DNA of 13,077 nucleotides. It comes from a virus (lineage: Duplodnaviria; Heunggongvirae; Uroviricota; Caudoviricetes). Positions 117 through 272 of this stretch are shown here, in pieces. A program made the position numbers and the translations under genes. Numbering within the stretch: the stretch's first letter is position 1; each line of letters starts with the position of its first letter. The notes under the pieces were generated by a model. That model made no database searches. It had not been told where the DNA came from and saw only the letters and a list, made by a program, of their open reading frames with translations. The stretch lies in IMG/VR virus record IMGVR_UViG_2671180603_000001. One strand, written 5' to 3'.

Positions 117-192
117 TGGTGCTGGTTAACGGACTTGAACCGCTACCCATTCGCTTACAAGGCGACTGCTCTACCATTAGAGCTAAACCAGC
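117..192 (-). tRNA. tRNA-like gene, predicted anticodon UGU (Thr-like), phage-encoded
   Basis: Minus-strand 76 nt folds as a cloverleaf: acceptor GCTGGTT/AACCAGC (7 bp), D arm GCTC-TAATGGTA-GAGC, anticodon loop CTTGTAA, T arm AGCGG-TTCAAGT-CCGTT, discriminator A, encoded CCA. One G-A mismatch in the anticodon stem and T instead of A at position 14. Position between Q/pR-prime and the lysis side matches where lambdoid phages carry tRNA genes. Confidence 0.45.
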
Positions 193-197
193 ATATT

Positions 198-272
198 TGG
201 CGGGACAGCGTGGACTCGAACAACGATAAGAAGGTTAACAGCCTTCCGTAATGACCTTTATACGACTGACCC
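198..272 (-). tRNA. degenerate tRNA-like gene, predicted anticodon GUU (Asn-like)
   Basis: Minus-strand 75 nt: acceptor GGGTCAG/CTGTCCC (one U-U mismatch), anticodon arm GAAGG-CTGTTAA-CCTTC, T loop TTCGAGT with one T-stem mismatch, discriminator G, encoded CCA. D arm is atypical (GTAT-AAAGGTCA-TTAC). May be a functional phage tRNA or a pseudo-tRNA. Confidence 0.35.

Follow-up and report, generated by a model that had tools for sequence, protein, structure and literature searches.

The window, that is, the whole stretch of 13,077 nucleotides analysed here, is a lambdoid E. coli prophage sequence in reverse orientation and carries a tRNA-Asn(GUU) gene and a tRNA-Thr(UGU) gene in tandem (Table 1). 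Because both genes lie on the minus strand, they are transcribed in the order Asn, then Thr. The minus strand reads ninH, Q, pR', a structured leader of ~170 nt, a T-run, tRNA-Asn, tRNA-Thr, a 116-nt spacer and a holin gene. The holin start codon lies just beyond the window; in the record of the FDAARGOS_944 prophage, the closest complete-genome relative, the holin gene spans 19785..20000 and ends immediately left of window position 1. Lysozyme and lysis-protein genes come after this class II holin.

Table 1 Minus-strand features of the late region around the tRNA cassette, in window coordinates
Feature	Position	Strand	Details and basis
Q late-gene antiterminator, 207 aa	533..1156	minus	ORF list; 'antitermination protein' in near-identical records
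pR', lambda/HK97 type (TTGACT, 17 nt, TAAATT)	462..490	minus	Promoter scan; qut-like sequence between hexamers
T-run UUUUUUAUUU (282..273) with weak preceding hairpin	273..298	minus	Putative tR' equivalent; abuts tRNA-Asn 5' end
tRNA-Asn(GUU)	198..272	minus	75 nt, encoded CCA, discriminator G73, anticodon 239..237; ARAGORN and Rfam
G52U in tRNA-Asn T stem	222	minus	A on plus strand, C in relatives; makes U52.C62 mismatch
Spacer between tRNA genes	193..197	minus	5 nt, AAUAU on RNA strand; alignments
tRNA-Thr(UGU)	117..192	minus	76 nt, encoded CCA, anticodon 159..157; ARAGORN and Rfam
Spacer from tRNA-Thr to class II (S21-like) holin	1..116	minus	Includes holin ribosome-binding site; homologous to phage 21

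ARAGORN calls two tRNA genes and no others across the 13 kb of the window, Thr (tgt) and Asn (gtt), and both exceed the gathering score of Rfam model RF00005 (29 bits), tRNA-Thr at 63.2 bits (E = 4.6e-12) and tRNA-Asn at 45.8 bits (E = 3e-07). The original prediction had described two tandem cloverleaf tRNAs with encoded CCA and anticodons UGU and GUU, placed between the late promoter region and the lysis side, and had proposed scoring them with tRNA-finding programs; the two calls, both scores and the order pR', Asn, Thr, holin bear this out. On the same model, E. coli K-12 tRNAs score from 53.4 bits (tyrU) to 74.6 bits, the phage 21 pair scores 61.5 and 55.3 bits, and the family consensus sequences fall inside the host range, so that the window copy of tRNA-Asn is alone in lying below it. 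Both window tRNAs are full length, have 7-nt anticodon loops and end in a genome-encoded CCA. The core nucleotides of tRNAs include U8, A14, G18 G19, the T-loop UUC, U33, a purine at 37 and the 3' CCA. All of these are found in the window tRNA-Asn, and tRNA-Thr departs from them at one position, with U14 (C14 in relatives) instead of A14. The identity elements of ThrRS are G1-C72, C2-G71, G35 and U36, and those of AsnRS are G34, U35, U36 and G73; each set is present in its respective window tRNA. The minimum-energy fold of tRNA-Thr is a cloverleaf (z = -3.1). That of tRNA-Asn is not (z = -1.05), and neither is that of host asnT, so this folding test has no discriminating power.

The window region 454-1200 matches HK97, HK620 and mEp235, in which promoter and qut are annotated. 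A consensus terminator scan of window 1-700 called no tR', its sole call being a false positive at the tRNA-Asn anticodon arm, and folding of the leader gave long-range structure with no isolated terminator hairpin. In phage 21 and Sf6, the annotated tR' terminator ends at the same T-run. As the scan called no terminator, we infer the late-leader terminator at the window T-run from this homology only. The tRNA genes sit past the T-run, so their transcription would be expected mainly when Q antiterminates.

The leader itself is strongly structured (285-455, minus strand; -57.3 kcal/mol, z = -2.5) and includes a GC-rich hairpin followed by a broken T-run (~345-383). A search of 50,697 phage records for relatives of the 188-nt leader (273-460) returned two partial matches only. 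A 50-nt segment of it recurs in other prophages, where it immediately precedes an HNH endonuclease gene, and several E. coli prophages carry a 163-aa HNH endonuclease gene between pR' and tRNA-Asn (AH21A060; L135 712-1203). The latter insertions recall the HNH genes that are scattered among the tRNA genes of T5.

In Kapi1 lysogens, a clear antisense signal covers both tRNAs, and in BTP1 a similar antisense signal lies in the stretch from the tRNAs to the holin gene (2026 transcriptome paper, PMC12922286); this report of antisense transcription was the only direct expression evidence for the cassette found in the BTP1 and Kapi1 literature. In the promoter scan, window 1-700 gave no promoter on the plus strand.

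Two further modules lie in the nin region. Rfam models identify a C4 antisense RNA (75.2 bits), the Hfq-binding RNA isrK (72.1 bits) and a c4 a1/b1 target element (50.1 bits) at 3532-3729 on the minus strand, and this C4/isrK/a1-b1 tandem is located just upstream of an antirepressor ant ORF (2793-3479, minus strand), as in the immI antisense module of P1 and P7. On the opposite strand (~3815-4397, plus), annotation of the FDAARGOS_944 prophage indicates a RelE/ParE-family toxin and a HigA-family antitoxin, to which the window ORFs 3663..4127 and 4117..4425 correspond.

A mosaic cassette of the phage 21 and Sf6 type

The window pair is the Asn-Thr cassette of phage 21 and Sf6, which is already known and routinely annotated, in hundreds of prophages and phages. 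Identity to tRNA-Thr21 was established from the phage 21 genome record (OL657228.1, CPT_21_64 and CPT_21_65): tRNA-Thr is identical at 75 of 76 positions, differing by C14U in the D loop (window 179), and tRNA-Asn at 74 of 75, differing by G52U. Phage 21 also has the same order (terminator T-run, Asn, 5-nt spacer, Thr, holin), the same downstream spacer and an S21-type holin. Phage 21 carries Q21, whereas the window cassette is joined to a lambda/HK97-type Q and pR' through its rare structured 170-nt leader. Homology begins exactly at the T-run, spans both tRNAs and reaches the ribosome-binding site of the holin gene. With homology limited to the segment from T-run to lysis side, and a different Q and promoter upstream, the cassette is a mosaic module that travels with S21-type lysis genes.

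As the original prediction had suggested checking, tRNA genes do occur at the same position in other lambdoid phages. The pair is annotated there in phage 21, Sf6 ('similar to phage 21'), SfI, BTP1, Kapi1 and mEp506, is present in HK446 and others that lack the annotation, and is listed in the SfI genome paper for Sf6, ST64T, PS3 and phage 21. The FDAARGOS_944 prophage is 99.9% identical over 1200 bases, with tRNA-Thr and tRNA-Asn annotated by the NCBI pipeline (PGAP). The Asn gene was found in 366 of 5,426 complete E. coli genomes. For a wider comparison, 131 cassettes were gathered from phage records and a viral-contig scan, using an invariant 17-mer of the Asn D arm that all of them consequently carry. 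The Asn-Thr architecture accounts for 101 of the 131, the others including Asn-Phe-Thr-Arg (mostly Klebsiella phages) and Asn-Gly, and ARAGORN called a Thr(UGU) gene in 114 of the 131 retrieved stretches. Klebsiella-type cassettes, among them ~10 viral contigs, read Asn-Phe(GAA)-Thr-Arg(UCU), sometimes followed by Gly(UCC). The ileZ-argN-argO genes of Stx-converting lambdoid phages, which lie between Q and stx, occupy the same slot downstream of the late terminator. They differ from the window pair in serving rare Ile and Arg codons, and are generally attributed to codon supplementation in favour of stx and the late genes.

Several relatives carry breakpoints or lesions within the tRNA genes. 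Q21-type Stx2 phages (for example, Stx2a_F349; L136 1201-1234) match phage 21 base for base over pR', tR' and as far as nucleotide 24 of tRNA-Asn, beyond which they diverge into ileZ-argN-argO and stx sequence; this stub is the trace of an old recombination joint within the tRNA gene. The second gene of contig L122 combines a 5' third of phage tRNA-Thr with a remainder identical to host thrU, and that of JLK-2012 (L004 1294-1369) is a chimera of a similar kind, its anticodon arm disturbed, and gets no ARAGORN call. ARAGORN likewise makes no call for the second gene of the ST64T/L type (Salmonella phage L, L005 1294-1365; PS3 is of the same type): its anticodon loop is collapsed, its score is 42.1 bits, and its annotation reads tRNA-Leu(TAA).

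Family traits and private damage among the stem mismatches

The stem mismatches that had been noticed in both genes are real: G27.A43 in tRNA-Thr, and U4.U69, U13.U22 and U52.C62 in tRNA-Asn, in which U13.U22 leaves a weak D stem of three pairs. Their reading as degeneration holds for one of the four. The gathered cassettes yielded 19 distinct usable sequences for tRNA-Asn and 21 distinct ones for tRNA-Thr; among these, position 4-69 of tRNA-Asn is unpaired in 17 of 19, 13-22 in 19 of 19, and 27-43 of tRNA-Thr in 21 of 21. Elsewhere in the same molecules, stem pairs have changed on both sides: 4-69, 5-68, 6-67, 7-66, 28-42 and 29-41 in tRNA-Asn, and 3-70, 5-68, 6-67 and 49-65 in tRNA-Thr. In both sets, the observed covariation score was reached by none of 500 shuffles, and slid-partner controls gave at most one third of it. 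On this comparative evidence, three of the mismatches (U4.U69 and U13.U22 in tRNA-Asn, G27.A43 in tRNA-Thr) are traits of the family kept by selection, and not signs of decay.

The fourth mismatch, U52.C62, is a different matter. The G52U change that creates it was found in 0 of the 366 complete E. coli genomes carrying the Asn gene and is the sole difference from the FDAARGOS_944 prophage across the aligned 460 bases (window 1-460). Elsewhere it occurs in a single IMG/VR contig, L128, which is 99.99% identical over 9.6 kb; other copies have G52-C62. A sequencing error is unlikely given this second assembly, which indicates that G52U is probably a real lineage-specific mutation. G52U lowers the RF00005 score by 9.5 bits, from 55.3 (family consensus) to 45.8, and shifts the energy of the Asn cloverleaf by about 6.6 kcal/mol (from -19.1 to -12.5), so the window copy of tRNA-Asn is probably weakened by a private T-stem mutation. 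The FDAARGOS_944 prophage looks defective, with IS600 and ISEc20 insertions, several truncated genes, and frameshifts in the tape-measure gene and in the DUF1441 gene adjoining the large terminase gene. Relaxed selection of this kind could lie behind G52U in the window lineage.

Anticodon stems and tRNA-cutting nucleases

The function of the Thr tRNA has been approached experimentally in its phage 21 form. P2 Old, the protein behind classic P2-lambda interference, is lethal because it cleaves the host tRNA-Thr(UGU), thrU: both cuts fall in the anticodon stem, one after C28 and the other after C40, and lie within paired CNG motifs (PMC12445682). Phage 21 tRNA-Thr resists this cleavage, almost fully at site 1, and protects cells from P2-OLD toxicity; the rescue was partial, with the tRNA expressed from a plasmid in an Old+Gam+ toxicity assay, and each of the four further phage tRNA-Thr(UGU) that were validated increased viability by a factor of 1000 or more (PMC12445682). 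The same tRNA restores ACA decoding in vivo, and its resistance is credited by the authors to C28U/G42A together with a shorter anticodon stem (PMC12445682). The window tRNA-Thr, one D-loop base away from tRNA-Thr21 (described there together with tRNA-Thr6), shares its anticodon, C28U/G42A and shortened stem. Its anticodon arm is GUCGC-CUUGUAA-GCGAA, compared with ACUGA-CUUGUAA-UCAGU in host thrU: the loops are identical, and the CNG motifs at 28-30 and 40-42 (CUG and CAG in the host) are replaced by UCG and CGA. U28-A42 thus alters the motif and G27.A43 shortens the stem, and the G27.A43 mismatch that had been flagged in the sequence is one of the two published resistance determinants of phage 21 tRNA-Thr. 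A counter-defence role of tRNA-Thr is therefore experimentally supported for the phage 21 form, and would extend to the window copy by its one-base likeness.

A second nuclease of the same family cuts tRNAs with both of the anticodons found here. [quoted passage not shown] P2 Old, in turn, has host tRNA-Asn(GUU) as a further substrate, cut at a lower rate than thrU (PMC12445682). UGU is thus the anticodon of the prime P2 Old target and of a major AriB target, and GUU that of a slower substrate of both. U39 is lost in both window tRNAs: positions 36-41 read UAAGCG in tRNA-Thr, against UAAUCA in host thrU, and UAACCU in tRNA-Asn, against UAAUCC in host asnT, giving G39/G41 and C39/U41, respectively. 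The whole anticodon arm of the window tRNA-Asn is GAAGG-CUGUUAA-CCUUC, compared with GCGGA-CUGUUAA-UCCGU in asnT, and the CNG motifs of the host (CGG at 28-30 and CCG at 40-42) are replaced by AAG and CUU. Its stem has all five pairs and lacks the shortening that, for tRNA-Thr21, was found necessary alongside the motif change (PMC12445682). In both tRNAs, the anticodon loop is identical to that of the host and the stem is rebuilt, a pattern expected for escape from nucleases that cut the stem and not from those that cut the loop. Klebsiella-phage copies of tRNA-Asn have C28-G42, which restores both CNG motifs (CAG and CUG); the motifs are lost in the versions from E. coli, Salmonella and Shigella phages.

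On these grounds, tRNA-Asn is most likely a second cleavage-resistant replacement tRNA, for host tRNA-Asn(GUU). The one new element here is the sequence-based argument that tRNA-Asn would fit the same logic of nuclease evasion. Against this role weigh the full five-pair stem, the CNG motifs restored in Klebsiella-phage copies and the absence of tRNA-Lys from the cassette. Moreover, a tRNA that is 62-72% identical to its host counterpart (62% for the window tRNA-Asn and asnT) would often differ at 39 and 41 by chance, and the argument from CNG motifs and U39 is uncalibrated. Asn U4.U69 and the absence of A14 from tRNA-Thr might be further changes that evade recognition.

A parallel is offered by the anti-PARIS tRNAs of T5. 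T5 versions of all three AriB substrates are needed to neutralize PARIS, and tRNA-Lys(UUU) is required (PMC12409363). Two of the three anticodons are shared with the window pair, both sets carry substitutions at 39 and 41, around the 40|41 cut site, and T5 tRNA-Thr also has G39; the T5 tRNAs are nevertheless only 60-67% identical to those of the window. The settings differ as well, the window cassette lying in the late leader of a temperate phage and lacking tRNA-Lys, and the T5 genes forming an early tRNA cluster. No tRNA-Lys was found in the window or in the 131 cassettes examined, and a cassette that lacks it cannot alone defeat the PARIS system studied. The Asn-Thr pairing may mirror the target spectrum of OLD-family Toprim nucleases that restrict lambdoid phages and be no accident of codon usage, with both tRNAs resistant, removing the residual growth defect that tRNA-Thr alone leaves under P2 Old and blunting PARIS-like systems that target mainly Thr and Asn; we regard this extension as tentative, at somewhat less than even odds.

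Taken together, the cassette is read as a pair of genuine late-leader phage tRNAs, of which tRNA-Thr, and most likely tRNA-Asn too, replaces a host tRNA cut by nucleases, a reading to which we assign a probability of roughly 70%. The tRNAs would be made mainly during lytic growth, through Q antitermination of pR' transcription, and would be cut out of the late leader at the head of the late mRNA by host tRNA-processing enzymes. With the host anticodon loop kept and the stem rebuilt (U28-A42 for C28-G42, G39 for U39, and G27.A43), tRNA-Thr would escape P2 Old and probably also PARIS AriB, another OLD-family Toprim nuclease, and would keep the ACA codons that are frequent in the prophage readable. 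Two points count against counter-defence: transcription of the tRNAs is late, whereas Gam sets off Old at an earlier stage, and the Thr gene could be worth keeping for the ACA enrichment alone.

Alternative functions and biological meaning

That last point is the core of the explanation by codon supplementation, in which the tRNAs chiefly speed up translation of late proteins and have no defence role. Codon counts were taken from the annotated genes of the near-identical prophage and from 50 kb of chromosome of the same strain. ACA occurs at 12.4 per 1000 codons in the late genes of the prophage and at 17.1 in its early genes, compared with 5.3 in host genes (odds ratios 2.4 and 3.3, respectively; P < 1e-5 for both). 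The SfI genome paper reports the same ACA bias (17.3 versus 7.1) and calls the role of the tRNA-Asn unclear, and host tRNA-Thr(UGU), a low-abundance tRNA according to PMC12445682, comes from a single gene, thrU. The adjustment of codon usage proposed in the original prediction therefore finds support for tRNA-Thr, yet fails for tRNA-Asn, as AAU is unchanged in the prophage and AAC is depleted (odds ratio 0.70). Supplementation also leaves unexplained why the conserved departures from the host lie in the anticodon stem and why G27.A43 is invariant, and ACA is most frequent in early genes, whose translation precedes the Q-dependent expression of the tRNAs. As the main function, supplementation is unlikely, with perhaps one chance in five. 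The two functions are not mutually exclusive: ACA supplementation can be a compatible side benefit of tRNA-Thr, and high ACA use means that the phage would be especially sensitive to loss of thrU.

Two other readings carry far less weight. The genes had alternatively been proposed to be decaying pseudo-tRNAs, retained to signal RNA processing in the late leader or to offer patches of homology for recombination between mosaic phages. The private T-stem mismatch of the window tRNA-Asn, which has the lowest score of any copy, would fit such decay, as would the exact start of phage 21 homology at the terminator T-run and the relatives broken within the genes (the Stx2 Asn stub, L122, JLK-2012 and the collapsed loop of ST64T/L). 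However, both window genes stand well above the model threshold, compensatory changes uphold their stem pairs, the ThrRS and AsnRS identity elements are present, and Thr(UGU) accompanies the Asn motif in most of the retrieved stretches. Restoration of ACA decoding in vivo, in effect, demonstrates a mature, charged tRNA for the phage 21 Thr. These observations favour functional phage tRNAs, the first of the two options originally offered; the pseudo-tRNA option is rejected for the window pair, for which it is highly improbable, and holds for some relatives. tRNA-Asn(GUU) is one of the tRNAs whose wobble base is queuosine. Such tRNAs are the cited targets of colicin E5 (PMC12409363), and the phage tRNA-Asn might accordingly counter a loop-cutting toxin of this type and not OLD-family nucleases. 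However, the phage loop, CUGUUAA, is that of the host, and all differences in the anticodon arm lie in the stem; colicin E5 and other loop-cutters were rejected as the selective agent because of this loop identity, and we give them next to no chance.

Replacement of nuclease-cut host tRNAs remains the preferred reading, and the cassette serves chiefly as an illustration. For tRNA-Thr, what looks like decay, namely the mismatches in its stem, is a published adaptation by which a temperate phage keeps translating when the nuclease of a rival prophage removes a host tRNA. If the same were true of tRNA-Asn, the tRNA cassettes of lambdoid late leaders could be read as a record of the tRNA-cutting defences that these phages have met.
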